12,734 nucleotides of DNA, taken from the NCBI GenBank assembly GCA_937888485.1, contig CALAQQ010000071.1:1-12734 (forward strand). The letters are read 5' to 3'. A model generated the notes under the pieces. That model was not told where the DNA came from. It worked only from the letters and a program-made list of their open reading frames with translations, and made no database searches. Of the stretch, positions 1-12,734 are shown in pieces. The position numbers and the translations under genes were made by a program. How positions within the stretch are numbered: the first letter of the stretch is position 1; every line of letters begins with the position of its first letter. Source of the stretch: an uncultured Clostridia bacterium. GTDB lineage: Bacteria > Bacillota > Clostridia > Oscillospirales > Acutalibacteraceae.

Positions 1-19
1 CGATTTCGTTGTTTGACAT
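1..19 (-). CDS. First 6 codons (MSNNEI...) of a leftward gene transcribed divergently from the Xre gene; product unknown (position suggests a cI-like or other regulator)
   Basis: ATG at 19-17 on the minus strand, preceded by AAGGAGA (complement of 29-35) with an 8-nt spacer. Sits downstream of the leftward promoter at 70-98. Too little sequence to identify. Confidence 0.35.
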
Positions 20-69
20 AGTTGTTATCTCCTTTGTTTTTATTTGTTTGGTGTTTATCAACTGTCTAT

Positions 70-98
70 ATTATAGCACTAAATATTAGTGCTGTCTA
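70..98 (-). promoter_or_regulatory. Leftward sigma-A-type promoter: -35 TAGACA (93-98), 17-nt spacer, -10 TATAAT (70-75)
   Basis: Hexamers read directly on the minus strand. The perfect palindromic operator O1 (75-93) fills the spacer. Confidence 0.55.
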
Positions 99-161
99 TT
101 GACATATTACACTAATTTTTAGTGCAATATTTGTGCAATTTTAGCACTTGATTTTAGTGCA
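75..161. promoter_or_regulatory. Three related 19-bp operators (8-bp arms, 3-bp spacer): O1 75-93 AGCACTAA-ATA-TTAGTGCT (perfect), O2 108-126 TACACTAA-TTT-TTAGTGCA (1 arm mismatch), O3 143-161 AGCACTTG-ATT-TTAGTGCA (imperfect)
   Basis: Read directly. Centres are at about 84, 117 and 152, so spacing is 33 and 35 bp. O1 lies in the leftward promoter spacer. O3 overlaps the -35 and spacer of the rightward promoter. GTGCAAT also recurs at 122, 133 and 157. Confidence 0.6.
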
Positions 162-176
162 ATTATATGATAGAAT
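148..176 (+). promoter_or_regulatory. Rightward promoter of the Xre gene: -35 TTGATT (148-153), 17-nt spacer, extended -10 TGATAGAAT (168-176)
   Basis: Hexamers and the TGn extension read directly. RBS GGAAAGGTGG (186-195) and ATG at 206 follow. Confidence 0.6.
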
Positions 177-205
177 GATTACGCTGGGAAAGGTGGTGCT
201 AAAAT

Positions 206-424
206 ATGGCATTACAGTATAAGATTGATATTATGGATGCGTTGAAAAACAAAGGTTATTCTTCAACGAAAATCCGTGAAGAAAAACTTATCGGTCAATC
301 ATACCTTCAACAAATCAGACACGGTGAATTGGTATCGTGGAAAACTATTGATACTCTTTGCTCCCTCTTGGACTGTCAGGTTGGCGATTTGGTTGAGTAT
401 GTAAAAGACCCCGATGCTCAGTAA
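206..424 (+). CDS. Xre/Cro-C1-type helix-turn-helix transcriptional regulator (72 aa)
   Basis: The ORF has a good RBS. The sequence LKNKGYSSTKIREEKLIGQSYLQQIRHGELVSWKTIDTLCSLLDCQVGDLVEY is typical of small HTH_26/Xre regulators of phages and ICEs. It sits next to an operator-rich divergent promoter region. TAA stop. Confidence 0.85.
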   Translation: MALQYKIDIMDALKNKGYSSTKIREEKLIGQSYLQQIRHGELVSWKTIDTLCSLLDCQVGDLVEYVKDPDAQ

Positions 425-698
425 AGGGCGAACAGAGTTTCTTTAACAAATAACGGCGATTTTTGCACGGAATACACCCGATTTTTACCGAGCTTAAAGT
501 GTGAAGGAAAGCAGTTGTTTTTCTGAACAGGGGTCAGGGGGTATATTTCGGGAGAATCAAAAACACTTTCTCCCTTTGCGGAATTGCGTGGCTTGTTCTC
601 CGTCTGAATGTGATTTTTGTTTCGGATTACGGTTTATCCCGACCGCAAATGATAGAATGATTGTTTCTCCGTCAAGCGAACCAAAAGGAATATAAACG

Positions 699-742
699 AA
701 AAAAGACGGCAAACCGTGAGATTGTTTCTCTTGGTTTGCCGT
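699..742 (-). terminator. Rho-independent terminator closing the leftward module
   Basis: 10-bp stem ACGGCAAACC (706-715) / GGTTTGCCGT (733-742). On the minus strand it is followed by a six-U run (complement of 699-704). Lies 6 nt after the stop at 748. Confidence 0.7.
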
Positions 743-747
743 TTCGC

Positions 748-882
748 TTATTTCCAATCCTTGAATATTTCATCAAGTGCCATATCGAGTGCGGTTTTCA
801 TGCTCTTTTGCATAAAGGCAAGAATTTCCGCCTCGATTATGTTTTTCTTTTTCTTCTTCTTTTTGTCTTTTGGATTCGACAC
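748..882 (-). CDS. Small lysine-rich hypothetical protein (44 aa, GTG start): VSNPKDKKKKKKKNIIEAEILAFMQKSMKTALDMALDEIFKDWK
   Basis: Below the ORF-track length cut-off. GAGGTG RBS 8 nt upstream of the GTG. Starts 2 nt after the TAA of the preceding gene. TAA stop is followed directly by the terminator. Confidence 0.35.
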   Translation of the reverse strand: MSNPKDKKKKKKKNIIEAEILAFMQKSMKTALDMALDEIFKDWK

Positions 883-884
883 TG

Positions 885-1070
885 TTATTTCACCTCACTT
901 GTAAAGATGAATTGAACAGTCTCAGGTTCTTCCGAATCCTGTAATGAGTTGAAGAAATTATCTCTCTGTTCTGTATAGTTTTCTATTGCAGATTTGCCGT
1001 TCATTTGATAATAAAACAAATCGGGAACTTTGCCCTATGCTCTGTTAAACTCCAATAAATCTTTATTCAT
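885..1070 (-). CDS. Hypothetical 61-codon protein with one in-frame TAG (1035-1037): MNKDLLEFNRAxGKVPDLFYYQMNGKSAIENYTEQRDNFFNSLQDSEEPETVQFIFTSEVK
   Basis: The ATG at 1070 overlaps the TGA of the upstream gene (ATGA). The same frame stays open on both sides of the TAG. TAA stop at 885-887. Under the standard code only 11 codons would be made. Confidence 0.45.
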
Positions 1071-1504
1071 ATATTTTCTCCTTCCATAATATCATCAAGG
1101 GATATATTCAATGCACCCCTGTTGACTGTATAGCTTCTCCAATTTTCCTCTTTTGGAATCTGAGTGTTCAGCGGCGGCTAATACAGGCGGATGAAATATC
1201 CTTCTCTTTCTCCGATTTCTTCTTCGATTTCTGCTCTTGTTTTGCTCTTGGCGGTATAAAGAACGTTGAATCTGACGTTATATCTCCGCCTATGGGCTTC
1301 CGCAAGAACTTTGTATTTATTCTCTTTTGGATTTCCCATTGAAGCCCAATGTTCCGCCATTCGGTATAGAATATCTTTGCTTTTACCGATATAAACGATT
1401 TTATTGTTGACGGTTATTGAATAAACCCCCGAACACTAAAACTTTTTACTCCATTCTTGCTCTATGTATTTGTTGTAAATATTCTGTATGTGTAAATTAC
1501 TCAT
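1067..1504 (-). CDS. GIY-YIG domain nuclease (145 codons) with two in-frame TAG codons (1436-1438 and 1178-1180)
   Basis: RBS AAGGAGA sits 7 nt before the ATG at 1504. Translation is MSNLHIQNIYNKYIEQEWSKKFxCSGVYSITVNNKIVYIGKSKDILYRMAEHW...EIEEEIGEREGYFIRLYxPPLNTQIP...MEGENI. The GVY..(9)..YIGKS motif lies after the first TAG. The closing E...I....P.LN motif of the fold spans the second TAG. The real stop TGA (1067-1069) overlaps the next ATG. Confidence 0.7.
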
Positions 1505-1519
1505 ATTCATTCTCCTTTA

Positions 1520-2071
1520 TTAAAATTTAAAATTACCGTGTTCGTCTGTTAAACTCCCACTTGCTTTTGGATTCTTTATATTGTTATAATTTATATTATT
1601 CGAGCTTATAATTTTCTCTATATTATTATGCGTATTTTCAATAACCCCTGCTGAGGTGTATTCAGAATTTGAAGGGGTATATTCATTGTCAGGGGAAGGG
1701 GTATTTTCAATATCCCTCTCCGCACTTTTATAAATCGCATCATAATCAACGATGATTTCGCCTTGTTGACCGTTTTCGCTTGGCTTGTGGATTATCCAAC
1801 CTTTTTCAATCAGCTTTTTTCTTGCACTCTTATACGTTGTTTCTGACATTCCGCATCTGCTCATGACCGTTGCCTCAGGAACGGCAAAACTGCCGTTATC
1901 TGCATTTCCTGTCAGAAATAATATCAGTTTCAGCTAAGCTCCTTCTTTGCCTGTCAGACCGTTAAATATTATTGATTCAAGGTGATTCGTTCTCATTGCC
2001 ATTCCCCACTTTTTATCCCTGTTTTTTTCTCCATTAGCCCTCAGTATCGGTGCCTGAATAAAAACGCCCAT
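1520..2071 (-). CDS. Winged-helix replication-initiator / DnaD-like phage-plasmid replication protein (183 codons) with one in-frame TAG (1934-1936)
   Basis: Translation is MGVFIQAPILRANGEKNRDKKWGMAMRTNHLESIIFNGLTGKEGAxLKLILFLTGNADNGSFAVPEATVMSRCGMSETTYKSARKKLIEKGWIIHKP..., followed by a low-complexity N/S/E-rich tail. The pattern G-x-x-x-x-P-x-x-L ... L(T/S)xxxxxxLxLxL ... wHTH ... L-x-E-K-G-W-I matches phage/ICE replication organiser proteins. GGAGGA lies 9 nt before the ATG at 2071. Alternative starts at 2002 or 1996 are also upstream of the TAG. TAA stop. Confidence 0.65.
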
Positions 2072-2213
2072 AGCCGCAAATCCTCCACTGTTCGCAAATA
2101 AATCTGATATACTGACTTGTATTCATGTGATATTTTCTTGCCTACTCTTGGATTGCTTCCTTTTCTTTTTCAGTCAGGCGAAGGTCAATTTTTTTATTTT
2201 TTATAGTCTTCAT
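2034..2213 (-). CDS. Ribbon-helix-helix (MobC/CopG-like) protein, 59 codons, with one in-frame TAG (2142-2144)
   Basis: Translation is MKTIKNKKIDLRLTEKEKEAIQExARKYHMNTSQYIRFICEQWRICGYGRFYSGTDTEG. The beta strand (IDLRLT) and helix A precede the TAG, and helix B (NTSQYIRFI) follows it in the same frame. RBS GGAGAG is 5 nt before the ATG at 2213. An in-frame alternative start at 2264 (MSDISFKRKF...) exists. TAA stop at 2034-2036. Confidence 0.6.
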
Positions 2214-2283
2214 TTTATCTCTCCTTTTACTTGTAAATTTTCTTTTAAATGAAATATCAGACATTGTCCTACCTTCTAAATAT

Positions 2284-2312
2284 ATTATACAAAAATTTTT
2301 TGTTAAAATCAA
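2284..2312 (-). promoter_or_regulatory. Strong internal leftward promoter: -35 TTGATT (2307-2312), 17-nt spacer, -10 TATAAT (2284-2289), driving the TAG-containing module
   Basis: Near-consensus hexamers read on the minus strand. Lies directly downstream of terminator-like hairpins and upstream of the RHH gene. Confidence 0.6.
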
Positions 2313-2366
2313 AAAAGAGCGGTCGCCGCAAACAAAAGCACCGCTGAACTCGAGTGAATTCAGCGG
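2311..2366 (-). terminator. Tandem terminator-like hairpins after the paralogue pair
   Basis: Minus-strand RNA: CCGCUGAA-(10 nt)-UUCAGCGG (2341-2366) followed by UGCUUUUGUUUG. Then GCGG-CGA-CCGC (2319-2329) followed by UCUUUUUU. Confidence 0.5.
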
Positions 2367-2403
2367 CGGACTTGCTTTATTAAAATACATGGATTTGTTC
2401 CTT

Positions 2404-2925
2404 TCAGGCGGCAGGGTCAACTATTTCATTTTCTTCAGTTGCGTTATCGTTTTCTGCAACTGCGTTATCGATTTTTATAACTGCGTTATCTTTTTCCTCT
2501 TGGACTTCATCAGAGTTTTTGTCAACAGTCGGCATACCGTAATTTACGATTTCAGGATATTTCTTCAAAAACCAATTTTTAATTTCAGGATAACGGTATG
2601 CTTTTGAATGACATTCACTGATAAAAAGTTTATCATCAAGTTCTTTGAGAACAGCATCTCTTGTTTCAACAGGCTCAAATCTGTTGATATATTCTTTCAT
2701 ATAATCATAAGTTAATCCTTTGTAGTGTTCCTGATTGCTGTTAGCATTTATATTCTCACGGATAACCACATCAAAATTCGGGAAACTCTTTACATACTCG
2801 ACAAGCGTCTTATATTCCTTGTTTTTAGGGTTTTTTGCCTTTTCCGCAAACCATTTATAAAGAATAATTTGTTTGTTTGCGTAATCAATTCTTGCAGGGT
2901 TTATTCTTTTTCTTGACTTAGCCAT
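2404..2925 (-). CDS. Hypothetical protein, paralogue B (173 aa from MAKSRK...), with an acidic C-terminal tail of three heptad repeats
   Basis: RBS GGAAGGTGA is 5 nt before the ATG at 2925 (the ORF-track GTG at 2934 overlaps the RBS). Shares YKGL(T/G)YDYMK(E/R)YI and WFLxxYPEI motifs with the upstream gene. TGA stop. I recognise no family. Confidence 0.8.
   Translation of the reverse strand: MAKSRKRINPARIDYANKQIILYKWFAEKAKNPKNKEYKTLVEYVKSFPNFDVVIRENINANSNQEHYKGLTYDYMKEYINRFEPVETRDAVLKELDDKLFISECHSKAYRYPEIKNWFLKKYPEIVNYGMPTVDKNSDEVQEEKDNAVIKIDNAVAENDNATEENEIVDPAA
2440..2502. repeat. Three tandem 21-nt repeats, each starting TGCGTTATC, encoding DNAVIKI / DNAVAEN / DNATEEN on the minus strand
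   Basis: TGCGTTATC is found at 2440, 2461 and 2482, exactly 21 nt apart, inside the 3' end of paralogue B. Confidence 0.7.
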
Positions 2926-2947
2926 GATATTCACCTTCCTTTCTTAA

Positions 2948-3394
2948 TTAAGCCACAACTCTAAGCTTGGCTTTCTTTTCTTCACGAGCCTTTGCTCTCT
3001 TGGCTTTGATTTCCTTAATTTCCTCATCAGTTTTGTTGTTGAATTCTTCTATTTCAGGGTATGTTGCCAAGAACCACATTTTAATGTCACCATAAGAGAA
3101 TTCTTTGATAGTAACATCTCTTTCACCTTTTTCATTAAGACCCCTGAGCTTATAGAACATTTTCAGGTTTTCTTCCTTATTTTCATGAGCTTCGATGTAT
3201 CGCTTCATGTAATCATAACCAAGACCTTTGTATGTGTCTCTCTTGGTTGAGTTTGCTTTTACAACAATTTCATAACCTGTGAATATTGTGCGGAACTTTA
3301 CAAGTTCTTCAAACTTTTCACTTCCGAACTTTCCTGCTTCCTTTGATTCAGCCTTTGTCATTACAATAACTTTCTTTTCGTGATTTGCATACAT
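2948..3394 (-). CDS. Hypothetical protein, paralogue A (148 aa)
   Basis: RBS AAGGAGA is 6 nt before the ATG at 3394. Motifs TYKGLGYDYMKRYI and MWFLATYPEIEEF are colinear with paralogue B. Lys/Glu-rich C-terminus. TAA stop. Confidence 0.85.
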   Translation of the reverse strand: MYANHEKKVIVMTKAESKEAGKFGSEKFEELVKFRTIFTGYEIVVKANSTKRDTYKGLGYDYMKRYIEAHENKEENLKMFYKLRGLNEKGERDVTIKEFSYGDIKMWFLATYPEIEEFNNKTDEEIKEIKAKRAKAREEKKAKLRVVA

Positions 3395-3405
3395 AATTTT
3401 TCTCC

Positions 3406-3463
3406 TTAATAATAGGCGTTAGGTCGCCACCCTATTTTTATTATTCAGCGGTAAGTCGCTACC
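3406..3463 (-). promoter_or_regulatory. Structured 5' leader with a duplicated stem-loop module just upstream of the paralogue A RBS
   Basis: Plus-strand modules GGCG-TTAGGT-CGCC-ACC (3415-3431) and AGCG-GTAAGT-CGCT-ACC (3447-3463) are 32 nt apart. The closing pair differs by a compensatory change (G-C versus A-T). AATAGG (3411-3416) / CCTATT (3431-3436) can form a larger helix that abuts the RBS. Confidence 0.4.
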
Positions 3464-3558
3464 TTATTTCAGCACTTCAGGTTTCACCGTTTGCCTCTTG
3501 GTTTCGTTCACTCCTTTCAGGCGTTTTGTTTTGGTGTGTTCCCCTCTGCTGTGTCTAC

Positions 3559-3567
3559 AGTATATCA
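3559..3567 (-). promoter_or_regulatory. Candidate extended -10 promoter (TGATATACT on the minus strand) for the paralogue operon; weak -35
   Basis: Plus-strand AGTATATCA at 3559-3567. It would give a leader of about 160 nt. No good -35 hexamer was found. Confidence 0.3.
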
Positions 3568-3605
3568 CGCAACCACAATTTATCAGTCGTTATAAATGCA
3601 AAAAT

Positions 3606-3647
3606 AAGAAAGATACAAACTTTTTCAAAAAAAGTTGTATCTTTCTT
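3606..3647. terminator. Long AT-rich inverted repeat (19 bp with one bulge); bidirectional terminator/insulator or recombination/transfer-related hairpin
   Basis: AAGAAAGATACAAACTTTTT (3606-3625), c, AAAAAAAGTTGTATCTTTCTT (3627-3647). T-rich tracts flank it on both strands. Confidence 0.4.
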
Positions 3648-3655
3648 CTTAAATA

Positions 3656-3695
3656 GTTGTTATTAGGTTGTTATAAAGGCTTATAAATGTTGTTA
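3656..3695 (+). repeat. Helically phased direct repeats GTTGTTA at 3656, 3667 and 3689 (offsets 11 and 22 nt); candidate arm-type recombinase/accessory-protein sites or iterons
   Basis: Read directly. TTATAAA is also duplicated (3671-3677 and 3681-3687). Lies about 190 nt from the att core. Confidence 0.4.
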
Positions 3696-3714
3696 AAAAC
3701 TTATTACATACCTG

Positions 3715-3743
3715 TTGATTTTATAATAGAATTGTTTTATACT
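3715..3743 (+). promoter_or_regulatory. Outward-facing promoter-like element: -35 TTGATT (3715-3720), 17-nt spacer, -10 TATACT (3738-3743)
   Basis: Hexamers read directly. It points toward the tRNA fragment and terminator. The AT-rich context raises the chance of a false positive. Confidence 0.35.
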
Positions 3744-3854
3744 GTTATTGATTTAGAGATGAGGTCTGAGTTAATGTTAAACAAGACCTCTACATAATTA
3801 AGATTCCTAAAACTTGTTTAGTGTCAAGGGGTTGTTGGGGGTATCGTCTCCAAA

Positions 3855-3877
3855 ACAAGACCGAGAATCGGTCTTGT
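3855..3877. repeat. Perfect 10-bp inverted repeat ACAAGACCGA-GAA-TCGGTCTTGT abutting the att core
   Basis: Read directly. It ends 4 nt before the tRNA-derived sequence begins. Confidence 0.6.
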
Positions 3878-3880
3878 GTG

Positions 3881-3926
3881 CTTGGTAAGGATGAGGTCGG
3901 CGGTTCAATTCCGCCTAGCAGCTCCA
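3881..3926 (+). pseudogene. 3' portion (about 45 nt) of a tRNA-Thr(GGU) gene without its 5' half; interpreted as the displaced tRNA end at attR
   Basis: Colinear canonical parts are present: anticodon loop TTGGTAA (U33, GGT, A37) at 3882-3888, stem strand GGATG, variable loop AGGTC, T arm GGCGG-TTCAATT-CCGCC (3899-3915), acceptor strand TAGCAGC, discriminator T, and CCA (3924-3926). It closely parallels known bacterial tRNA-Thr(GGU) 3' halves. The partner strands CATCC and GCTGCTA and a D arm are absent upstream. Confidence 0.75.
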
Positions 3927-3929
3927 GAT

Positions 3930-3961
3930 AGCACTTCCTTTTGGAAGTGCTTTTCTTTTTT
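3930..3961 (+). terminator. Rho-independent terminator of the native tRNA gene
   Basis: AGCACTTCC-TTTT-GGAAGTGCT (3930-3951) followed by TTTCTTTTTT. Confidence 0.8.
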
Positions 3962-3962
3962 G

Positions 3963-3991
3963 TTGACAAAAATCGGGCAATGATTTATTCT
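3963..3991 (+). promoter_or_regulatory. Promoter of the GxGYxYP gene: -35 TTGACA (3963-3968), 17-nt spacer, -10 TATTCT (3986-3991)
   Basis: Hexamers read directly. RBS AAGGTGG lies at 4000-4006 and the ATG at 4013. Confidence 0.45.
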
Positions 3992-4012
3992 GTATTATAA
4001 GGTGGTGTTTTT

Positions 4013-5680
4013 ATGACAAGATTTACAGCATTCTTTATTTCGATAATACTGTTTTTCATTTCATGCTTTACGCCCGCAACTCCTGAAGCAAAACCTGAGC
4101 AGGAGCTTTTACAACTCGGCGATATCTGCATTGACTACACACTTTCAGACAAGCTTTATGTTCTTGATTCATCAACATTCCAAAGCAAAGATGAACGTCA
4201 CATGGCGGTAGGTCTTCAGGGCGTTGTTGCAAAAACCGCTCCGCTCATATATATAGTCACAAATTCAGCAGATAATTATTATCTTGAAGAGATTGAAAAA
4301 AGCGGTATTGAACTTATACGCAAAGATGAAAACGGTGAAAATTGGACCGTCAAATCTCTTCTCAACAAATTCAAATCATACATAACCGATTCGGGTTATG
4401 TTCTTTACCGTGAAAGCGAAAAGGCAGAAGGTCTTAACGCCGCAACAAATCTTGCGGCTCTTTACGGATGGTTGCCCGTACCTGAAAGCCTGAAACAGCT
4501 TGCAGTTGATGCAGGTCTTTCTCTTAAAGAGGATTTTTCAGATGACACATACAACTTGGTTTTTCAGTGGAGTTTTTTTGAAAAACATAAGGATGAGTTC
4601 AATTATAACGCACTTGCCAGCCTTAAATATGAGGTAACGGGCATTCGTGACCTTGCAATTCAGCAAGGATTTTACACATTCTATATTGACGATAACGAAG
4701 ACACGACTCTTCTTCGCGGTCATGTTATGAAACATGCAGGAGATAACGTTCCCGTTCTCGGATGGGTTAAATACGAGGTTGCATTCGTTGAGCAGGCATC
4801 AAAAAACGGCAATATTGCACTCCCCTCAGATCACAGCCACAATAACAGTTACCTTGCTTCGTTCAGATATGATATTCCCGAACAAAAGCACAGTGTTACA
4901 AAGGAATACACAGACACAACCAAACATTACTGCGCAATCGTTTTCAGCGACGGCGACAATCTTCAATGGATTCAGAACGGATACAGCGAATATTATCAAA
5001 AACTTGCCCTCGAAAATCAGTTCCCCATAACATGGTCATTTCCGCCACTGCTCCAAGAATTTTCACCTATTACTGTCAAAAGAATATATTCCGATGCAAC
5101 TGAAAACGATTATTTCATGGCAGGTGTTTCGGGCGCAGGATATATTCATCCGACCGAATACCCCTTTGACGCTCTCGGAGGATTCACCGATTTAACCGCT
5201 TCCTCAATGATGAAGAGCAATCTTGAATATGTTCAGATTCTCGACGGCACTCCGGAAAATAAAATTGACGATAAAATCCTTACCGACAGACTTGAATACT
5301 ATGCAAGATACGATAACATCAAGGGCGGTGTTTTAAGCCTTGATCCAACAAGATATGAGGGCGGCAAGGGCATGATTTATTTCGTTAACGACAAGCCCTT
5401 TATCAGCTACCGTCTTTCTCTCTGGCATCCAGACGGCGAGGGTGCAAGCGTTACAAACGAATGGCTTGACGAGCAGGCAGCAACAGTCAATTTCTACCCC
5501 GCAGATATTAAATCAATCAACGGATACAGCGTTATCAATGTTCATCCGTGGACCGTCAGCATTGAAAATCTCGCATATTTCGTAAGTCAGCTTGACGAGG
5601 ACGTTGTTCTCGTAACGCTTGATGAGCTTATGGAAATGATTGACAAGAATATTCCTCACGAATATGCAAAACCGGAATAA
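4013..5680 (+). CDS. GxGYxYP-domain protein (putative secreted/anchored glycoside hydrolase family), 555 aa
   Basis: N-terminal hydrophobic signal/anchor FFISIILFFISC (possible lipobox). GVSGAGYIHP matches the GxGYxYP signature. Good RBS and TAA stop. Confidence 0.8.
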   Translation: MTRFTAFFISIILFFISCFTPATPEAKPEQELLQLGDICIDYTLSDKLYVLDSSTFQSKDERHMAVGLQGVVAKTAPLIYIVTNSADNYYLEEIEKSGIELIRKDENGENWTVKSLLNKFKSYITDSGYVLYRESEKAEGLNAATNLAALYGWLPVPESLKQLAVDAGLSLKEDFSDDTYNLVFQWSFFEKHKDEFNYNALASLKYEVTGIRDLAIQQGFYTFYIDDNEDTTLLRGHVMKHAGDNVPVLGWVKYEVAFVEQASKNGNIALPSDHSHNNSYLASFRYDIPEQKHSVTKEYTDTTKHYCAIVFSDGDNLQWIQNGYSEYYQKLALENQFPITWSFPPLLQEFSPITVKRIYSDATENDYFMAGVSGAGYIHPTEYPFDALGGFTDLTASSMMKSNLEYVQILDGTPENKIDDKILTDRLEYYARYDNIKGGVLSLDPTRYEGGKGMIYFVNDKPFISYRLSLWHPDGEGASVTNEWLDEQAATVNFYPADIKSINGYSVINVHPWTVSIENLAYFVSQLDEDVVLVTLDELMEMIDKNIPHEYAKPE

Positions 5681-5687
5681 TAAAAAC

Positions 5688-5706
5688 GGGCGGCTCAATG
5701 CCGCCC
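5688..5706. terminator. Bidirectional terminator between convergent genes
   Basis: GGGCGGC-TCAAT-GCCGCCC. An A-run lies upstream and a T-rich tract downstream on the plus strand. On the minus strand it is followed by GTTTTTATTATT. Confidence 0.7.
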
Positions 5707-5712
5707 ATAATG

Positions 5713-6225
5713 TTATTTTGATTTGACAAACTTATAAATTATCGGCGGCAAAACACAGGCAACAATCAATACAGTGCAAAAAATAATATGCGCCTCAGAA
5801 AAGCCCGCAGGTCTTACATTTCCGTAGAACTCTCTGAAAAAGCCGTCAAAAACAGATAATGCAGGCATGGCCGGAATCAAAAACAGCAAAAGAATAAATG
5901 AAATATAATCCTCAAATCCAAGACCTAAATATTGATTTATCCAAAGAAAAAGAAACGCAACCGAAGGAACAACTAAAAATAAATATGAACCGAATAACAT
6001 TGCGTCTTTCGATTTTCTTTTGCAAACAACAGCAATGACAATCGAATACACAAGAAAGAGAAAAGGAAATATCAGAGTTATCAGTCTGCTTTCCGTGGGA
6101 AGATAAATATAGTCAACCAAAAAAGGCATTCTTCCTGCTGAAAAAACTCCCAAAGCCCAGACCGCAAGCGTTATTGCGGCGCCGAGAAAAAACTGTTTTG
6201 TGTCCGAATGTTTTTTATTTGCCAT
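5713..6225 (-). CDS. Hypothetical integral membrane protein (170 aa, several predicted TM helices)
   Basis: RBS AAAGGAG before the ATG at 6225. Hydrophobic segments run throughout (LGAAITLAVWALGVF, LITLIFPFLFLVYSIVIAVV, LFLVVPSVAFLFLWI, FILLLFLIPAMPAL, IIFCTVLIVACVLPPII). No family recognised. Confidence 0.7.
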   Translation of the reverse strand: MANKKHSDTKQFFLGAAITLAVWALGVFSAGRMPFLVDYIYLPTESRLITLIFPFLFLVYSIVIAVVCKRKSKDAMLFGSYLFLVVPSVAFLFLWINQYLGLGFEDYISFILLLFLIPAMPALSVFDGFFREFYGNVRPAGFSEAHIIFCTVLIVACVLPPIIYKFVKSK

Positions 6226-6331
6226 ATTACCACTCCTTTCCTTATCTTAACTATATCACGGCAAGAAATTTATTGTGTTACGGAAATATTAATATTGAAT
6301 TACAAATATTTACAAAACAAAAGGTGAAAAA

Positions 6332-7015
6332 ATGAAAACCGAAATAAATATCATAGCTCATATTCACACCGATTTTTCGTCAAAATTCGGTATACCCCGT
6401 CAGAGCGGACTTGTTGACGAGCTTGAAGCAACGATAGTTTTTGAACCCGAATACCGCAATCCCGATGCGCTGAGAGGCATTGAAGAATATTCGCATTTAT
6501 GGCTTCTGTGGCAGTTTTCGGAATGCATGGACAAGGAATGGACTCCGACGGTCAGACCGCCGAGACTCGGAGGCAACAAAAGAATGGGCGTTTTTGCAAC
6601 ACGCTCCCCTTTCAGACCTAATCCGATAGGTCTTTCAAGCGTAAGATTTCTCGGCATTGAAAAAACGGAAAAGTACGGTTATGTTCTTCGTGTTGCAGGT
6701 GCGGATTTGCTTGACGGCACTCCGATTTACGACATAAAGCCATATCTTCCCTACGTTGACTCACATCCCGAAGCAAGCAACGGCTTTGCACTTGATGAAA
6801 AGGATGGCAGACTTACCGTTGATTTTCCTGATGAGCTTTTAAATATGATTCCGAGCGAAAAGCAATCGGCATTGATTGCAGTCCTTGCGCAGGACCCCCG
6901 ACCCGGTTATCAGGATATTCCCGAAAGAATTTACGGAATAGAATTTGCGGGGTTTGACGTGAGATTCAAGGTTGAAAACTCTGTTTTATCAGTTATTGAA
7001 ATCAAAAACATATAA
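6332..7015 (+). CDS. trmO: tRNA (N6-threonylcarbamoyladenosine(37)-N6)-methyltransferase TrmO (TsaA/YaeB family)
   Basis: Family-typical motifs: FGIPRQSGL, YSHLWLLWQF, GVFATRSPFRPNPIGLS, GADLLDGTPIYDIKPYLPY. 227 aa, RBS AAGGTGA. Confidence 0.88.
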   Translation: MKTEINIIAHIHTDFSSKFGIPRQSGLVDELEATIVFEPEYRNPDALRGIEEYSHLWLLWQFSECMDKEWTPTVRPPRLGGNKRMGVFATRSPFRPNPIGLSSVRFLGIEKTEKYGYVLRVAGADLLDGTPIYDIKPYLPYVDSHPEASNGFALDEKDGRLTVDFPDELLNMIPSEKQSALIAVLAQDPRPGYQDIPERIYGIEFAGFDVRFKVENSVLSVIEIKNI

Positions 7016-7046
7016 AAAAACCGAGGTTTTAAAGCCTCGGTTTTTT
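7016..7046. terminator. Bidirectional terminator between trmO and the convergent operon
   Basis: A-run, CCGAGGTT-TTAA-AGCCTCGG (7021-7040), then T6. Confidence 0.75.
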
Positions 7047-7047
7047 G

Positions 7048-8673
7048 TTACGGTTGCAGAACAATCGGATGGTCTTCACTGATATGCTCGATTGTTATAA
7101 AATTATTTCTCTTTGCATATGCCCACTTCATTCCGAACGCCTTACAAGCGCCGTCAACGGGCATATAAAGCTGACCTTCGTTGCCTCTGAAAACTTCCGC
7201 GCCGAGGTCAACATCGCCTTTATTTGTCACGGCAATACTGCTTCCTTCGGTGAAAGTAACTTCTCTTCCGTAGATTTTAAGAGTGACCTTTCCCTTTTCA
7301 CGGATATCTTCACCGCCTGCAAATCTTATCATAGTTGCAAAAGCGATATACCACTCGCCGTCTTTGCATACAGCGGGAGTTGACATATTGCAAAGAGCAA
7401 GATCGACACCTTTATAATACACTCTCGTTCTGCCTTCGCCGAAAACCGGAGCAACTCTGTAAGGTCTGATTTCGTCTTTTGATTTATCAATTGAGAATTC
7501 ATCAATGATTCTGCCGTCGTTAAGCTCGGAAATAATTGATATTTTATCGCCGTCAACCTCAACAAGAGCAAAAGAGGAAACCTGTTCCTCATGAGGATAG
7601 AAAGATGCGTGCCATACTTTGTCGGTTGTTTTTGTTCCGGGAGGATTGAAATTTGCGTTGCCGAGTTCATAATGAATCGTGCCCTGCGAGGGTCTGTCAA
7701 AAATCTCTTCGTTCTTTATAGGAAATGAACGGGAGAAGTTATGCTCATGACCCGAGAAAAGAATATCGAGCATTTCCATTGATTCGCGCATCATGGGATA
7801 ATCATCATCGTTTGCAAGGTTGGGACCTGCATAATAAACGGGGAAATGCTGAGTGCCGAGTTTCCAGGTTTTATCGCTTTTTGCAATATCTTCTATCGCC
7901 CATTCATTCATAAGCTCGGGTTCATTAACACCGAAAACATTGAAATGAACGTTGCCGTAATCAAATGAATAAATTTCCGTCTGCCAACCCTCAGGACCGT
8001 TCTTTGGATATGAATATTCAAGCTGGGTATTGAAAAACTCAGCGGGCTCGGCATAGTATCTGTTAACCTCGTTGGGAAAATAATGCTCAAAGCCTCTGTT
8101 ATCATGGTTTCCGCAGGTCATCATATAGGGCAGATGCTCCATGATACCTTCCATACCCTCAAACATTGCGTTCCACTGAATTTCATGCTGACCGCAGTTT
8201 GTATTGTCGCCTGCGGTCAGAATAAACTTTACATCGGGGTATTTTGCGAGAATATCTTTGAGGAACTTGTTGAGAGTTGAATAATCGGGATTATAATGGT
8301 CGTTATCCTTTTGGTGGTCGGAAATCGCAATAAATCTGAACTTTGTGAGGTTTTCTTCCTCGGTATCAAACCAATATTCTTTGCTTCTGTTTTCCGCACT
8401 TCCGCAGGTATAATAATATCTTGTTCCGGGTTTCAGATCTGACGGAGTTGCCCAGAAAATATTGCTCGTGTTGACATCACTCTTGAACGGCTTCACGATT
8501 GCGTCCGCACGCTTTTTTTCTCCGTCTTTTTCGTAATACTCAACGTAACCTTCGGTAACATCAAGGCTTGAACGCCACGTTACCGTCATTGAGGTTTTGG
8601 CATCTCCCGAAATGCTGACCATAATATGGTCGGGCTTTTCGGTTGCAAATCTGTAATTGGGTGTTCTTTCCAT
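7048..8673 (-). CDS. Metallophosphoesterase with a purple-acid-phosphatase-like N-terminal domain and a C-terminal copper-amine-oxidase-N-like (stalk) domain, 541 aa
   Basis: Metallophosphoesterase motifs ISDHQ, TAGDNTN, CGNHDN and SGHEHNF. N-terminal TVTWRS...GTRYYYTCGS. No obvious signal peptide. RBS AAGGTGA. Confidence 0.85.
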   Translation of the reverse strand: MERTPNYRFATEKPDHIMVSISGDAKTSMTVTWRSSLDVTEGYVEYYEKDGEKKRADAIVKPFKSDVNTSNIFWATPSDLKPGTRYYYTCGSAENRSKEYWFDTEEENLTKFRFIAISDHQKDNDHYNPDYSTLNKFLKDILAKYPDVKFILTAGDNTNCGQHEIQWNAMFEGMEGIMEHLPYMMTCGNHDNRGFEHYFPNEVNRYYAEPAEFFNTQLEYSYPKNGPEGWQTEIYSFDYGNVHFNVFGVNEPELMNEWAIEDIAKSDKTWKLGTQHFPVYYAGPNLANDDDYPMMRESMEMLDILFSGHEHNFSRSFPIKNEEIFDRPSQGTIHYELGNANFNPPGTKTTDKVWHASFYPHEEQVSSFALVEVDGDKISIISELNDGRIIDEFSIDKSKDEIRPYRVAPVFGEGRTRVYYKGVDLALCNMSTPAVCKDGEWYIAFATMIRFAGGEDIREKGKVTLKIYGREVTFTEGSSIAVTNKGDVDLGAEVFRGNEGQLYMPVDGACKAFGMKWAYAKRNNFITIEHISEDHPIVLQP

Positions 8674-8675
8674 AA

Positions 8676-9983
8676 TTATTTCACCTTGATTTTAAATAAT
8701 CTTGCACCGTGGGAATTGACTTCTGCCGAAAATTCACCGTCGGTTACCGCATATTCTTCATGCTTCCACATATCCCATACGGAATAATTTATACCGCCGA
8801 TCGCAATATCGTTGATATCAAATTTTATGTTTCTGACTTTATCATCGGTATTGAAAAGAGCAACATATTTACAGTTTTCACCCTTTGAAGTCCAGATAAT
8901 TTCGCCCTTGCCGTCGGTTTCGTTTCTGCTGAACTGTCTTGCACCGCTTGAGTTTTTGAGCATATCGATAAGCTCTCTGTTCTGAAGAAGAGAAAGAGTG
9001 AACTCATCGTTTTCACGCATTTCAGCACCTATCATGAGCGGTGAACGGAAAATTCCCCAAAGAGTCATCATCGTTATCTGCTCATCATGAGTAAAACGGG
9101 TATATCTGTTTCTGTACTTTTCGAGCTCTTCGGTCTTCTGAATCCTGCCTATGGGAAGCATATCACAATCGGGCCATGCACCCGGCTGAACATATTCCTG
9201 CCATGCATAGCAACGCTCAAACATTGCATGAAGCTTGCTCCATTCATCCCAGAAATCGCCCGTCATTCTCCAGAGATTTGCGTTTGCGGCAAGATGTTCA
9301 TGCTCCCATACGGGTGCGGGACCGGGTGAAAGGCTGAGAACCATATCTCTGCCGCACTTATCAATTGCTTTGCGGAGCATTTCAATTTCTTCTCTGCCCG
9401 AATAAGGCTTATCAGGCCACATCTCTGTATTGGCAATATCATCGCATTTGATGTAGTCGACACCCCACTCGGCATAAAGTTCAAAAATGGAATCGTAATA
9501 TTCCTGCGCGCCCTTTTTATGAGTTTCAAGACCGTACATATCGGGATTCCACGGACAAATTGACGAAGGCTTTGCAATATCTTTTGCAGTGACGCCTTCA
9601 CACTTGATTTTAGTATTCATGTGTGCAGCCTGTCTGGGAATGCCTCTCATGATATGAATACCGAATTTAAGCCCGAGTGAGTGGATATAATCAGCAATAG
9701 GTTTGAAGCCTTTTCCGCCTGCTGAGGAAGGAAATCTTTCAACAGAGGGAATAAGGCGTGAATATTCATCCATGCAAAGGGGCGCAAAATAGTGGTAATA
9801 AAAGCTGTCGGCTGTCGGTTCTGACCACTGAATATCGCAGACAACATATTCCCAACCGTAATCCTTAAGATGCTCAGCCATATAGTCGGCATTTGCAAGA
9901 AGCTGTTCCTCGTTAACGGCAGCACCGTAGCAGTCCCAACTGTTCCAACCCATGGGAGGAGTGGGGGCAAGTCTTTTGTGCAT
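8676..9983 (-). CDS. Glycoside hydrolase family 27 enzyme (alpha-galactosidase-like), 435 aa
   Basis: PPMGWNSWDCYG N-terminal signature and the VDYIKCDD nucleophile-region motif. Starts 2 nt after the upstream gene ends. Confidence 0.85.
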   Translation of the reverse strand: MHKRLAPTPPMGWNSWDCYGAAVNEEQLLANADYMAEHLKDYGWEYVVCDIQWSEPTADSFYYHYFAPLCMDEYSRLIPSVERFPSSAGGKGFKPIADYIHSLGLKFGIHIMRGIPRQAAHMNTKIKCEGVTAKDIAKPSSICPWNPDMYGLETHKKGAQEYYDSIFELYAEWGVDYIKCDDIANTEMWPDKPYSGREEIEMLRKAIDKCGRDMVLSLSPGPAPVWEHEHLAANANLWRMTGDFWDEWSKLHAMFERCYAWQEYVQPGAWPDCDMLPIGRIQKTEELEKYRNRYTRFTHDEQITMMTLWGIFRSPLMIGAEMRENDEFTLSLLQNRELIDMLKNSSGARQFSRNETDGKGEIIWTSKGENCKYVALFNTDDKVRNIKFDINDIAIGGINYSVWDMWKHEEYAVTDGEFSAEVNSHGARLFKIKVK

Positions 9984-9985
9984 AA

Positions 9986-10810
9986 TTATCTTTCCTTTCG
10001 ATAAACTCTTATCTCAAACTCTGCCTGAGTTTCGAGATAGTCAAGATTATTTATTTTTTGTTGGTCTTCAATTCCTGTTTTATAATAATAAGGTGTCATT
10101 TTGAAAAGGCTCTGTATCATTTCATTGGAATTCATCAGAAACTGTGTTTTGGTCTGACAAGTTTTAACACAGCTGAAGCCGTCAATTTCCGTATCGGGAA
10201 CATCGTTGAGATAAGGCTTTTCATATATTGCGGCTTTCAGTCCGAAAAGATGCTTTTCAAGCGGAATTATCTTTATAAGATAACCTCCTGTTTTCAGAAC
10301 ACGGTGAAATTCTCCGTCTGCATCGGGTGAAAAGATATTCAGCACCGCATCGAAGCGTTCGTCGGCAAACGGCAAATCAAAAAGACTTGCAACGGCGAGA
10401 GGAATTCCGCTTTTCCTTTTTGAGGCATATTCAAGCGCATCCTTCGAAATATCAACGCCCGAAACAAAAATCTCTTTTCCTTTTTCGGAATAATACTGCT
10501 TCAGACCCGATGAATAATAACATTCACCGCAGCCCGCATCGAGAAAATCTCTGCCGTCGGGAAGATATTTTTCGCAGATTTCACACAGTTCATCACGCAG
10601 AAAACCGTAATAACCCGAATCGAGGAAATCGCGTCTTGCCCTGACCATGAGGCGGTCGTCGCCGTGGCGTTTTGCGGAGGATTTCTGCGACTGCAACAAA
10701 TTCACATAGCCGAATTTTGACTTATCGAAACAATGCCCCTTTTCACAGCGGTAAAGCCTTTCTTCTTCTGAAAGCTCTTTTTTGCATACGGGACAAATAA
10801 AATTTATCAT
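9986..10810 (-). CDS. rlmA: 23S rRNA (guanine-N1)-methyltransferase, RlmA family
   Basis: Zn-finger CPVC...C.KGHCFD, then FGYVNLL, GDD..MV.AR..FL, and SAM motif LDAGCGECYY. The ATG overlaps the upstream TGA (ATGA at 10807-10810). Confidence 0.8.
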   Translation of the reverse strand: MINFICPVCKKELSEEERLYRCEKGHCFDKSKFGYVNLLQSQKSSAKRHGDDRLMVRARRDFLDSGYYGFLRDELCEICEKYLPDGRDFLDAGCGECYYSSGLKQYYSEKGKEIFVSGVDISKDALEYASKRKSGIPLAVASLFDLPFADERFDAVLNIFSPDADGEFHRVLKTGGYLIKIIPLEKHLFGLKAAIYEKPYLNDVPDTEIDGFSCVKTCQTKTQFLMNSNEMIQSLFKMTPYYYKTGIEDQQKINNLDYLETQAEFEIRVYRKER

Positions 10811-11673
10811 TTCTTAACCCTGTATTTCTCAATTTTTTTCATCATTGATCTGCCGACGTCATGCATGAATCTTTCGCATGCGGGAAGCAAATCATCTGGG
10901 AAGCCGTGGAGAAAACGGTCCGCTTCATACGTAAAATTACCCTTATAGTCGATTTCTCCGAGTGCGTGAAGAATATCGTCCCAATCCATTTCCATCATAT
11001 AGGGAAGAGTGTGGCTGTCATTAAAATTATCGTTATCATGGATATGAAGGCAACCGAGTCTGCCGTCCATCTGACGAATCATTGCGCCCGCATTATCGCC
11101 GACAAGACCGCAATGACCGAGGTCAAGGCAAGCGGTGAAATTATCGGGATTCAGAGCGTCAACGTATCGGTTGAAATCCTCTGCAACGGAGCAAACGTTG
11201 GGAACGATTTTGTTAAGCTTATTATCCCATCCCCACATATTTTCGAGCGCAATTTTAACGCCGTATTCCTTGGCATAAGGTTCGAGAGAATGATAAAGCT
11301 CCATGTTACGCTCAAACTGGTCTGAGCTGAACTGCACGGGATGAACAACGCAGATTTTTGCATCGAGAATGCCTGAAATTTCAAGCGCTCTCTTGAGCTT
11401 TTCAAAAATCTGTACGGTATATTCACTGTCAAATTCCTTTGCGCTGGGGAAAGGTGCATGAGCCTGCTCAAAGGTTACACCGTAATAATCGGCAATCTTC
11501 TTCAATGCATTAATGTGGTTTTTATAAGCTGACGTGTTGAGCACGTCGTTATCATCGTCCATTTTGAACATGGAATAGTCTATTCCGTCAAAACCGCTTT
11601 CGCAGATAATACGAACTGCCTCGGCATCTCCGAGACGTTCGGAGATTCTTTCCGTCTGATTAACAAGCTTCAT
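10807..11673 (-). CDS. Sugar phosphate isomerase/epimerase (xylose-isomerase-like TIM barrel family), 288 aa
   Basis: Family-like blocks KIALENMWG, CLDLGH and LHIHDND. RBS GGAGG is 8 nt before the ATG. First gene of the four-gene leftward operon. Confidence 0.85.
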   Translation of the reverse strand: MKLVNQTERISERLGDAEAVRIICESGFDGIDYSMFKMDDDNDVLNTSAYKNHINALKKIADYYGVTFEQAHAPFPSAKEFDSEYTVQIFEKLKRALEISGILDAKICVVHPVQFSSDQFERNMELYHSLEPYAKEYGVKIALENMWGWDNKLNKIVPNVCSVAEDFNRYVDALNPDNFTACLDLGHCGLVGDNAGAMIRQMDGRLGCLHIHDNDNFNDSHTLPYMMEMDWDDILHALGEIDYKGNFTYEADRFLHGFPDDLLPACERFMHDVGRSMMKKIEKYRVKK

Positions 11674-11705
11674 ATATTTGCCTCCTATTATAAGGTCATG
11701 AGAAC

Positions 11706-11734
11706 ATTATAACAGTTAACTCTCTTTTCTACAA
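11706..11734 (-). promoter_or_regulatory. Operon promoter: -35 TTGTAG (11729-11734), 17-nt spacer, extended -10 TGTTATAAT (11706-11714)
   Basis: Read on the minus strand. A GTTAAC-centred site (11715-11720) lies in the spacer. Confidence 0.55.
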
Positions 11735-11737
11735 GTT

Positions 11738-11749
11738 ATTGTTAACAAT
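11738..11749. promoter_or_regulatory. Perfect 12-bp palindrome ATTGTTAACAAT; candidate TetR operator
   Basis: Lies between the divergent TetR gene and the operon promoter, 3 bp upstream of its -35. A related half-palindrome AACAGTTAAC is at 11711-11720. Confidence 0.45.
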
Positions 11750-11820
11750 TTTTTAATTGACTTTTAAATAAAAATATATTAAATTATTATCATTGGGAAA
11801 TTATAAAGGGGAGAAAGAAT

Positions 11821-12396
11821 ATGGCTAAAGCAGAATACAGAAGTTCAATACGTTCAAAAAACCTTATCAAAAAGGCTTTGGCTAAGCTGATTCACGAAAA
11901 GGATATAGCAAAAATCACTGTTTCGGATATTATCAGAGAAGCCGATATAAGCCGCGGCACATTCTATGCTCATTTTTCAGATGTCAATTCTGTTGTCACA
12001 CAGATTGAAAGCGAAGAAATGAACAGTCTTATGGATTTTGTTGATAAATACGGTTTTGAAAATATCAGCAAAACACCAAACAACTTCATTGCCGTCATAT
12101 GCGAATATATGATGCGTGATATGGAGTATTACCGTATGCTTGCAATGTCAAACATACTCAACAACTTTATCTGGCGTCTTGTAAATGTTTACTATGAAAA
12201 ACTGCTTGAGATAGTTTTGTCACTCAGACAGGATATTGACAGAAACGAAGCTGAAACTTACCTTATTTATATCACCTCAGGTGCAAAAACAGCTATTCTC
12301 AGCTGGCTCAACGGTGAAATAAAGTGTACCCCGGAAGAAATCGGCGAAAGACTCGGAAAGCTTATCAAACTGTCACAGACTTATTTTGAAAGATAA
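11821..12396 (+). CDS. TetR/AcrR family transcriptional regulator, 191 aa
   Basis: N-terminal HTH ITVSDIIREADISRGTFYAHFSD. RBS GGGGAG. Divergent from the carbohydrate/rlmA operon. Confidence 0.9.
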   Translation: MAKAEYRSSIRSKNLIKKALAKLIHEKDIAKITVSDIIREADISRGTFYAHFSDVNSVVTQIESEEMNSLMDFVDKYGFENISKTPNNFIAVICEYMMRDMEYYRMLAMSNILNNFIWRLVNVYYEKLLEIVLSLRQDIDRNEAETYLIYITSGAKTAILSWLNGEIKCTPEEIGERLGKLIKLSQTYFER

Positions 12397-12401
12397 TAAA
12401 A

Positions 12402-12440
12402 GGCACGATGCAATTTTAAATGCACCGTGCCGATTTTTTT
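12402..12440. terminator. Bidirectional terminator between convergent genes
   Basis: GGCACGATGCA-(loop)-TGCACCGTGCC (one mismatch) followed by T7. An A-rich tract lies upstream. Confidence 0.7.
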
Positions 12441-12734
12441 ATAATCCGATAAGTCCGAGAAAACCGTATGAGAAAGCACTCATAATGAGGTTTGCAATAA
12501 GAACACCGAGGGCAATAATCGGAAAAGAAGATTTTATTCTTATGTCGAGCAATGCCGCAATCAGTGCGCCTGTCCAACCGCCCGTACCTGGAAGAGGAAT
12601 GGCAACAAAAGCAAGAAGCCCCCAGTTTCTCCATCTCTTAACCTTTTCGCTCTTTCTCATGGAACGGACTTCAAGTTTTTCGATGAGTCCGCCGATTTTT
12701 TTGAATCTTTTGAGAAACTGAAAAATCCTTCTTA
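12439..12734 (-). CDS. Small multidrug export-like membrane protein (COG2426-type), C-terminal part; the gene continues past the window end
   Basis: The frame stays open upstream of the ORF-track Met (...RRIFQFLKRFKKIGGLIEKLEVRSMRKSEK...). The motif LLAFVAIPLPGTGGWTGALIAALL is typical of this family. TAA stop at 12439-12441. Confidence 0.65.
   Translation of the reverse strand, partial: RRIFQFLKRFKKIGGLIEKLEVRSMRKSEKVKRWRNWGLLAFVAIPLPGTGGWTGALIAALLDIRIKSSFPIIALGVLIANLIMSAFSYGFLGLIGL

Follow-up and report, generated by a model that had tools for sequence, protein, structure and literature searches.

Early in-frame TAG codons confined to the replication operon of an integrative island from gut Oscillospirales: a candidate translational gate

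How can an operon be expressed if four of its five genes carry in-frame TAG codons and the cell that harbors it uses TAG as a stop codon? This question is raised by a DNA stretch of 12,734 nucleotides from an uncultured Clostridia bacterium (Oscillospirales, Acutalibacteraceae; contig CALAQQ010000071.1 of assembly GCA_937888485.1), here called the window, whose positions 1-3926 represent the right half of an integrative island of approximately 8.8 kb from gut Oscillospirales (Clostridia). A first-pass annotation of positions 1-3926 had described the TAG codons as confined to one transcription unit and had proposed a replication or mobilisation module, which can only be translated when amber suppression is supplied in trans, either by a TAG-recoded helper phage or by a suppressor encoded in the part of the island to the left of position 1. 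Follow-up of this proposal leads us to a reading that we hold with about even confidence, namely that the replication and nuclease operon of the island is gated by early UAG codons, which are read as glutamine only if suppression is supplied in trans, most likely via a TAG-recoded phage.

The operon (positions 748-2213, minus strand) consists of five tightly packed open reading frames (ORFs). The first four, which encode a ribbon-helix-helix (RHH) protein, a Rep-like winged-helix protein, a GIY-YIG nuclease and a protein of 61 amino acids, are interrupted by TAG alone: together they contain five in-frame TAGs, and neither an in-frame TAA or TGA nor a frameshift was found in any of them. Matches to the NikA-like RHH, HTH_36/replication initiator and GIY-YIG catalytic domains in Pfam and PHROG cross or abut the TAGs. 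As had been stated before, all five TAGs lie in this one minus-strand unit, and the genes for an Xre-type regulator and two paralogous proteins are free of them (5/471 operon codons versus 0/396 other codons at positions 1-3926; Fisher p=0.066). In the element L001, the confinement becomes clearer with four TAGs in 471 operon codons versus none in the 1,810 codons of nine other genes (Fisher p=0.0018), and the genes for the integrase, the WYL regulator, the resolvase, DUF6809, a 91-aa protein (p91), Xre and the paralogues are all TAG-free. TAG accounts for approximately 12% of the stop trinucleotides in the region, and the probability that five out of five interruptions are TAG is approximately 3e-5. 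With the standard code, each of the four products would end at codon 12-25, in line with the predicted truncation, and peptides of 11-24 residues would be left.

The observation is real and general for the island family. Ten loci from independent assemblies were obtained by looking up the Xre protein, an identical copy of which is present in 80 collection blocks, and a genome scan added two loci in metagenome-assembled genomes (one from Acutalibacteraceae and one from a "Clostridia bacterium" from water deer) as well as a distant relative in Faecalimonas, in which an unrelated, TAG-free gene occupies the slot of the TAG module. The confinement of TAG to the operon recurs in all related copies, also in islands whose Rep genes are unrelated (L003, L020, L022 and L043). 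L003 and L022 possess a different, unrelated Rep gene and again contain early TAGs in Rep and its neighbors, while in L020 the RHH protein is replaced by a TAG-free protein of 104 amino acids and the TAGs are found in Rep, the GIY-YIG gene and a 73-aa ORF. The other genes of these three islands are TAG-free, save one TAG in a 444-aa ORF of L022, and their comparison reveals that modules have been exchanged between islands.

The first-pass annotation had itself named decay as a refuting outcome. On this view, the TAGs would be nonsense mutations and the interrupted genes pseudogenes of a dying element, and the region is indeed fragmented by standard-code gene callers. However, the ratio of non-synonymous to synonymous differences (pN/pS) of the module genes ranges from 0.05 to 0.3 overall, with pS values up to 0.49, and purifying selection persists downstream of the first TAG (pN/pS 0.07-0.25), which excludes decay. 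In addition, copies in differing genomic surroundings and alleles with as little as 71% identity contain the same TAGs. Decay, for which we see hardly any chance, is effectively refuted by the pN/pS values together with the TAG-only pattern of interruptions.

Comparison of alleles also indicates the amino acid for which TAG stands. Wherever a TAG in one allele corresponds to a sense codon in another, the sense codon is CAG (RHH codons 24 and 42, GIY-YIG codon 111), and the sole other change at TAG sites is from GAG to TAG at RHH codon 23. Since TAG alternates with CAG only, TAG in the module most likely encodes glutamine. A standard-code homolog of the L003-type Rep protein has glutamine at the position of the TAG in L003, and the uracil-DNA glycosylase encoded on a phage contig described below (L017) has a TAG at a site where E. 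coli Ung has glutamine. The individual TAGs differ in their constancy: every allele examined has the first TAG of its gene, even at protein identities as low as 71% (Rep-like and GIY-YIG proteins), and the second TAGs switch to CAG between alleles. In L004 and L008, the RHH sequence GAG-TAG has become TAG-CAG, so that the early TAG has moved by one codon and is still present.

Could the host simply read TAG as a sense codon throughout its genome, or could TAG encode pyrrolysine? The first-pass annotation had considered a constitutive suppressor tRNA of the host together with in-frame TAG in many host genes as the sign of genome-wide recoding. The flanks of the island (positions 3930-12734 of the window and the flanks of L001-L011) contain 54 non-redundant host ORFs with 18,895 codons, none of which is an in-frame TAG, and the approximately 1,800 codons of the other island genes are likewise devoid of it. 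TAG serves as terminator of one host gene of the OPT family and of one cargo gene of L002. Moreover, the alternation between TAG and CAG indicates glutamine, and searches of the island and of the host flanks examined did not reveal a pylT-like tRNA. Nothing except the rarity of TAG as a stop codon in host ORFs speaks for either idea. Genome-wide recoding is excluded for the DNA available, and both host-wide recoding and pyrrolysine, which we consider extremely improbable, are effectively refuted for this DNA by the host ORFs and the TAG-CAG alternation. As a side observation, the stop codons of the 54 ORFs comprise 46 TAA, seven TGA and one TAG, an extreme distribution for DNA with approximately 42% G+C; as TAG stops are nearly absent, amber suppression would be cheap for these hosts.

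A tRNA with a CUA anticodon could not be detected, in agreement with the earlier statement: ARAGORN found no tRNA at positions 1-3926, and relaxed thresholds, the intron mode, the mitochondrial mode and Rfam did not reveal a CUA anticodon either. The eight complete or near-complete copies of the island contain no tRNA besides the host tRNA-Thr at the left attachment site (attL); a suppressor encoded to the left of position 1, as had been proposed, is therefore refuted. Release-factor and tRNA-synthetase domains were not found in the island, and no tRNA(CUA) was seen in the host flanks. The bases that directly follow the five TAGs are G, C, T, C and G, and a shared read-through context is thus absent.

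Relatives of the island genes are found in TAG-recoded phages of similar G+C content, with identities of 36-51% for the GIY-YIG protein, 44% for the 61-aa protein and 38-52% for the integrase. L017 is the end of a 96-kb IMG/VR contig with 36% G+C and in-frame TAGs, on which the genes are ordered Rep, small ORF, GIY-YIG (51% identity over the full length), 78-aa ORF and a homolog of the 61-aa ORF (44%). Roughly 1.3 kb by which this contig could be extended and short stretches of two related contigs revealed no tRNA. The 20.5-kb contig L021 is a true TAG-recoded phage with nine TAGs in TerL. A metagenome scan with the GIY-YIG alignment revealed further strongly recoded small phages, whose coding density is 0.41-0.63 with code 11 versus 0.83-0.93 with code 15. 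Several of them are integrated as prophages right beside tRNA-Thr(CGT) and encode integrases 38% identical to that of the island; the 52% match is located on L051, a short, TAG-dense contig. The Topaz-like phages found here are 20-24 kb in size, integrate at tRNA-Thr and match the Topaz clade, which comprises TAG-recoded phages of 22 +/- 3 kb with Oscillospiraceae hosts, tRNA-Thr integration and a TAG-free integrase (Borges et al., 10.1101/2021.08.26.457843). It was suggested in passing in the same study that recoding might enable a phage to sense a co-infecting phage that uses the same code (Borges et al., 10.1101/2021.08.26.457843).

This kinship would also be expected if the island had acquired the module from a TAG-recoded phage, with TAGs that are ordinary code-15 glutamine codons without any gating role, in which case the island would only work where that code exists. 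Homologs of the GIY-YIG gene, the 61-aa ORF and, for the L003-type module, Rep in TAG-using phages, the common promoter sequence and the swapping of modules between islands are in line with such a passive inheritance. However, the TAGs of the island are sparse (one to three per gene) and biased towards the 5' end: the mean relative position of the first TAG is 0.20 versus 0.46 in the null model (p=0.0007, ten independent gene/position cases). In contrast, phage TAGs are dense and uniform, with the first TAG of Topaz-like phage genes at 0.25 versus 0.30 expected and approximately 3.7 TAGs per TAG-containing gene. Furthermore, the first TAG is fixed in all alleles whereas second TAGs flip to CAG, the TAG of the RHH gene was shifted by one codon instead of disappearing, and an early TAG is found in each of three unrelated Rep types. 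Passive inheritance is therefore regarded as improbable.

Gating by early UAG codons, on the other hand, would place the control of the operon at the level of translation. The internal promoter that had been predicted upstream of the operon was confirmed as a consensus match preceded by an intrinsic terminator, and divergent islands as well as the phage contig L017 share the promoter sequence. As this near-consensus promoter belongs to the operon alone and lacks an Xre operator, control of the operon is apparently translational; presumably its transcription is unhindered and the block lies at translation. As an observation on its own, the promoter and start region TTTTTTGAyTTT...TATAATATATATAGAA (2271-2317) is conserved in L003, L016, L020, L022 and the 96-kb phage contig L017, and the conservation extends past the -10 box. 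In a normal host, UAG would act as a stop codon and the operon transcript would only yield peptides of 11-24 residues. If the cell acquired efficient UAG-to-glutamine decoding, most likely because a TAG-recoded ("code 15") phage infects it or is induced in it, the four proteins would be made together and the island would replicate. The island would then be a satellite or a sentinel of recoded phages, which senses them through the genetic code. It is tempting to speculate, albeit tentatively, that the transcript is always present and becomes translatable only once a TAG-recoding phage sets UAG to glutamine, with the island acting either as a replicating and hitch-hiking satellite or as an abortive or interfering defence that releases the GIY-YIG nuclease specifically against recoded phages.

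A TAG-recoded phage is a plausible supplier of suppression in view of the genes and host clade shared, the same class of attachment site and what is known of the biology of such phages. Several results weigh against it, however. No tRNA(CUA) was found in any of 43 Topaz-like IMG/VR loci, and Rfam did not detect a tRNA in them either; because of this, it cannot be demonstrated that the phages with module-like genes provide suppression, which could in fact originate from the host. A search for the helper in IMG/VR via the integrase, the phage attachment site (attP), the 148-aa paralogue (par148) and Rep returned standard-code prophage fragments or nothing. In the variant L043, Rep is TAG-free, with TAGs kept in the GIY-YIG and 61-aa-like genes. 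The island itself was not found in IMG/VR, among the INPHARED isolate phages, where searches with Rep and GIY-YIG gave zero matches, or in the PLSDB plasmids, where searches with par148 and GIY-YIG gave nothing relevant. An excised circular copy was not seen: terminal repeats could not be found, and L020 represents the integrated form. Finally, a terS-like, packaging or capsid-redirecting gene or a cos/pac site was not recognised in the island. The helper phage proposed by the first-pass annotation thus has circumstantial support from the GIY-YIG, 61-aa and integrase homologs, and is weakened by the lack of suppressor tRNAs in those phages and of an identified helper or packaging function; of the overall interpretation, the confinement, the truncation expected in the standard code and the selection on intact genes stood, the left-part suppressor fell and the mobilisation function found no support.

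The same tRNA-less phages lead to a further explanation, according to which suppression is supplied by the host: Oscillospirales might have a conditional or weak UAG-to-glutamine activity of their own, for instance a suppressor tRNA induced by stress, a low activity of RF1 or near-cognate decoding by tRNA-Gln(CUG), which is exploited by the island and by Topaz-like phages without tRNAs. The TAGs would then lower expression or link it to the physiology of the host instead of a helper phage. It is known that natural UAG read-through typically inserts glutamine, which fits the TAG-CAG pattern. Suppression would be cheap, as TAG ends only one out of 54 host ORFs and TAA ends 85% of them, and no tRNA at all is encoded by Topaz-like genomes that are complete or nearly so and carry TAG in almost all of their genes. 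One such genome, represented by L105 and L128 (IMGVR_UViG_3300045988_078222), is complete with 21,424 bp, carries TAG in nearly every gene and has zero tRNAs. It follows from tRNA-less complete genomes of this kind that some non-phage or undetected source of UAG-to-glutamine decoding must exist in these Oscillospirales cells. Suppressor tRNAs were detected in only 40% of TAG-recoded phages (Borges et al., 10.1101/2021.08.26.457843). However, a tRNA(CUA) was seen in no host flank, and host genes as well as the other island genes strictly lack in-frame TAG, so that any such activity of the host must be inefficient under normal conditions. Leaky read-through would give a negligible yield of a GIY-YIG protein with two to three TAGs, or of phage homologs with up to nine, and the TAGs do not share a read-through context. 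Suppression by the host is therefore considered less likely than gating by a phage, but has to be taken seriously as a rival, more so than passive inheritance.

The features at positions 1-3926 are listed in Table 1.

Table 1. Features of the right half of the island (positions of the window).
Feature	Positions	Strand	Basis or remark
Start of p91, first six codons (MSNNEI) of a conserved 91-aa core gene	1-19	-	L001-L011 and L018 contain the whole gene
Three copies of the palindromic box CACTAAnnTTTAGTGCA, divergent xre/p91 promoter region	77-163		Repeat and inverted-repeat analysis
Xre-type HTH_26 regulator, 72 aa, TAG-free, stop TAA	206-424	+	Domain match
Conserved non-coding stretch, not a tRNA	425-747		83-99% identity across all copies
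44-aa ORF, last in operon, GTG start, TAG-free	748-882	-	
61-aa ORF, TAG at codon 12 (1035-1037)	885-1070	-	
GIY-YIG nuclease, 147 aa, TAG at codons 25 (1436-1438) and 111 (1178-1180)	1067-1510	-	Pfam/PHROG
Rep-like winged-helix protein, 160 aa, TAG at codon 23 (1934-1936)	1520-2002	-	HTH_36; PHROG replication initiation protein / DnaD-like helicase loader
RHH protein (NikA-like/CopG-like), 59 aa, first gene of operon, TAG at codon 24 (2142-2144)	2034-2213	-	
Sigma-70-type promoter of TAG operon, near-consensus TTGATT-17-TATAAT	2284-2312	-	Consensus match
Intrinsic terminator, end of paralogue unit, upstream of module promoter	2339-2368	-	
Paralogue 2, 176 aa, TAG-free, stop TGA	2404-2934	-	
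Paralogue 1 (par148), 148 aa, TAG-free, stop TAA	2948-3394	-	
Right attachment site (attR), 3' 46 nt of tRNA-Thr(GGT)	3881-3926	+	Intact tRNA at attL beside integrase

The island is inserted in the 3' end of a tRNA-Thr(GGT) gene, and the truncated tRNA-Thr noticed previously is attR; a tRNA-Thr repeat of 46 bp is duplicated as attL and attR in full copies, which span approximately 8.8 kb from attL to attR. Starting from tRNA-Thr(GGT), the genes to the left of position 1 encode a tyrosine integrase, a WYL/WCX regulator, variable cargo, a small serine recombinase (resolvase) and DUF6809, followed by p91, Xre, the conserved non-coding DNA, the TAG operon, the two paralogues and attR. The host genes beside the island differ from copy to copy, from which it follows that the island is mobile. 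The cargo comprises a type II restriction-modification pair in L002, a protein with a weak match to the FokI cleavage domain in L009 and large unknown proteins in L018 and L020; the cargo slot between the WYL/WCX regulator and the resolvase (L001-L010, L018, L020) recalls the defence hotspots of phage satellites. Virion, packaging and lysis genes were not found in full copies with Pfam and PHROG. No relaxase domain is present in the island copies, and a coupling protein and a recognisable oriT were likewise not found; the suggested mobilisation function is therefore not supported, as only the RHH protein with its NikA-like match is left. Public gene calls of the module disagree with each other: on short contigs, TAG is translated as Q and a full-length GIY-YIG protein of 145 amino acids is annotated, and on long chromosomal contigs (L001-L007) code 11 was used, which gives fragments of 44-114 amino acids. 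With table 11, the module genes of short contigs (P0001-P0057) fail to yield the protein on record. Due to these inconsistent gene calls, the island family is easy to miss.

The CACTAAnnTTTAGTGCA boxes, which probably form the Xre operator, are confined to the xre/p91 promoter region and absent from the promoter of the TAG module. The non-coding stretch of approximately 320 bp between the convergent Xre gene and operon is more conserved than the flanking genes, is retained in copies in which the Xre allele or the Rep module differs, and is closed by a bidirectional terminator hairpin at positions 706-742. It has no Rfam match and shows no convincing covariation on either strand, and the idea of a hidden tRNA or other RNA was dropped for these reasons. 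The stretch may serve as a replication origin or encode an uncharacterised RNA. The Rep-like gene has an alternative start further upstream, at position 2071. With regard to the nuclease, a GIY-YIG homolog is located just upstream of the small terminase gene in Topaz-related small siphophages, both standard-code and TAG-recoded (L021 726-2063, L118 2870-3746, L122 9905-10837). In L021, two small ORFs separate the homolog (46% identity) from terS, and in standard-code relatives of the Topaz-like phages the gene lies directly upstream of terS. This gene order hints at a packaging-linked role of the GIY-YIG protein and is the sole pointer to a means by which the island might hijack the packaging of a helper.

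The two paralogues belong to a narrow family of hypothetical proteins without matches in Pfam, PHROG or PADLOC. An AlphaFold2 model of paralogue 1 has a mean predicted local distance difference test (pLDDT) score of 81, and a matching fold is absent from the PDB and BFVD. The 3' end of the gene for the 176-aa paralogue contains tandem 21-bp repeats (TGCGTTATC...; 2426-2496), which encode an acidic, repetitive C-terminal tail of variable length (alleles of 155-187 amino acids). An inverted copy of the module promoter (2286-2312), TTGATT-17-TATACT, is located on the plus strand at positions 3715-3743 and points outward across attR. After excision and circularisation, this promoter-like site would read over attP toward the integrase. 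In the attR region, Rfam gives a weak match to the tmRNA clan over the T-arm (3828-3929).

Several known systems resemble the island in part. Like Topaz-clade phages, the island most likely uses in-frame TAG as glutamine and keeps its integrase and lysogeny genes TAG-free, and both integrate at tRNA-Thr in standard-code Oscillospirales hosts and share GIY-YIG and integrase homologs. A suppressor tRNA is not detectable in the island, nor in many of the phages. For TAG-recoded temperate phages of gut Firmicutes, a role of recoding as a translational switch has been proposed (Borges et al., 10.1101/2021.08.26.457843). With 8.8 kb, however, the island lacks terminase, portal, capsid, tail and lysis genes, and its TAGs are found early and in low number (one to three per gene) in one small replication operon, whereas the phages carry many per gene, spread along the length of nearly every gene. 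The attachment sites differ as well, with tRNA-Thr(GGT) for the island and tRNA-Thr(CGT) for the Topaz-like phages. TAG-recoded phages in general share with the island sense TAGs under purifying selection, and the island has no tRNA(CUA), release factor 2 or glutaminyl-tRNA synthetase of its own, just as 60% of recoded phages lack a suppressor tRNA.

In its architecture, the island is reminiscent of satellites such as the phage-inducible chromosomal islands (PICI), the PICI-like elements (PLE) and P4-like elements: it is small, bears an integrase, resides at a tRNA gene and lacks a full set of virion genes. It also has a divergent Xre-type regulator, a putative replication module of its own with the Rep-like gene, whose translation would be blocked by TAG in the standard code, and the conserved non-coding region, and a variable cargo slot with defence genes, for instance the type II restriction-modification system beside the WYL regulator. 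PLE encodes the nuclease NixI, and a nuclease gene is present in the island, too. However, no terS, capsid-size, cos/pac or primase-helicase functions were found. Known satellites sense their helper when a helper protein binds the satellite repressor, or via helper transcription factors, whereas the signal proposed for the island is the UAG decoding of the cell. Integrative and mobilizable elements of Firmicutes likewise have a tyrosine integrase, a small size and, as a parallel to the NikA-like match, an RHH protein, but they differ from the island in their relaxase, coupling protein and oriT.

The arrangement of early amber codons in several genes, for which a suppressor in trans is required, has its closest parallel in engineered amber-suppression gates and biocontainment circuits (suppressor-tRNA feed-forward control, PMC7969014). 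These circuits are synthetic, whereas the island would represent a naturally occurring example on a mobile element. In full-text literature searches, no satellite or island gated by amber codons was found to be described; recoding was reported in phages and prophages only and amber gating only in engineered systems. Stop-codon recoding in phages and prophages is thought to time the expression of late genes. Here, the recoding device is found in a non-phage island, where it has shrunk to a single conserved early amber codon for each gene of one operon, and the island does not bring a suppressor along. As tRNA(CUA) is absent from both complete Topaz-like genomes and the island, these Oscillospirales cells must have a different source of UAG-to-glutamine decoding. 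Taken together, if the gate is opened by recoded phages, the island would represent a new way by which a satellite or defence island detects its helper or enemy, and a natural counterpart of engineered amber-suppression switches.

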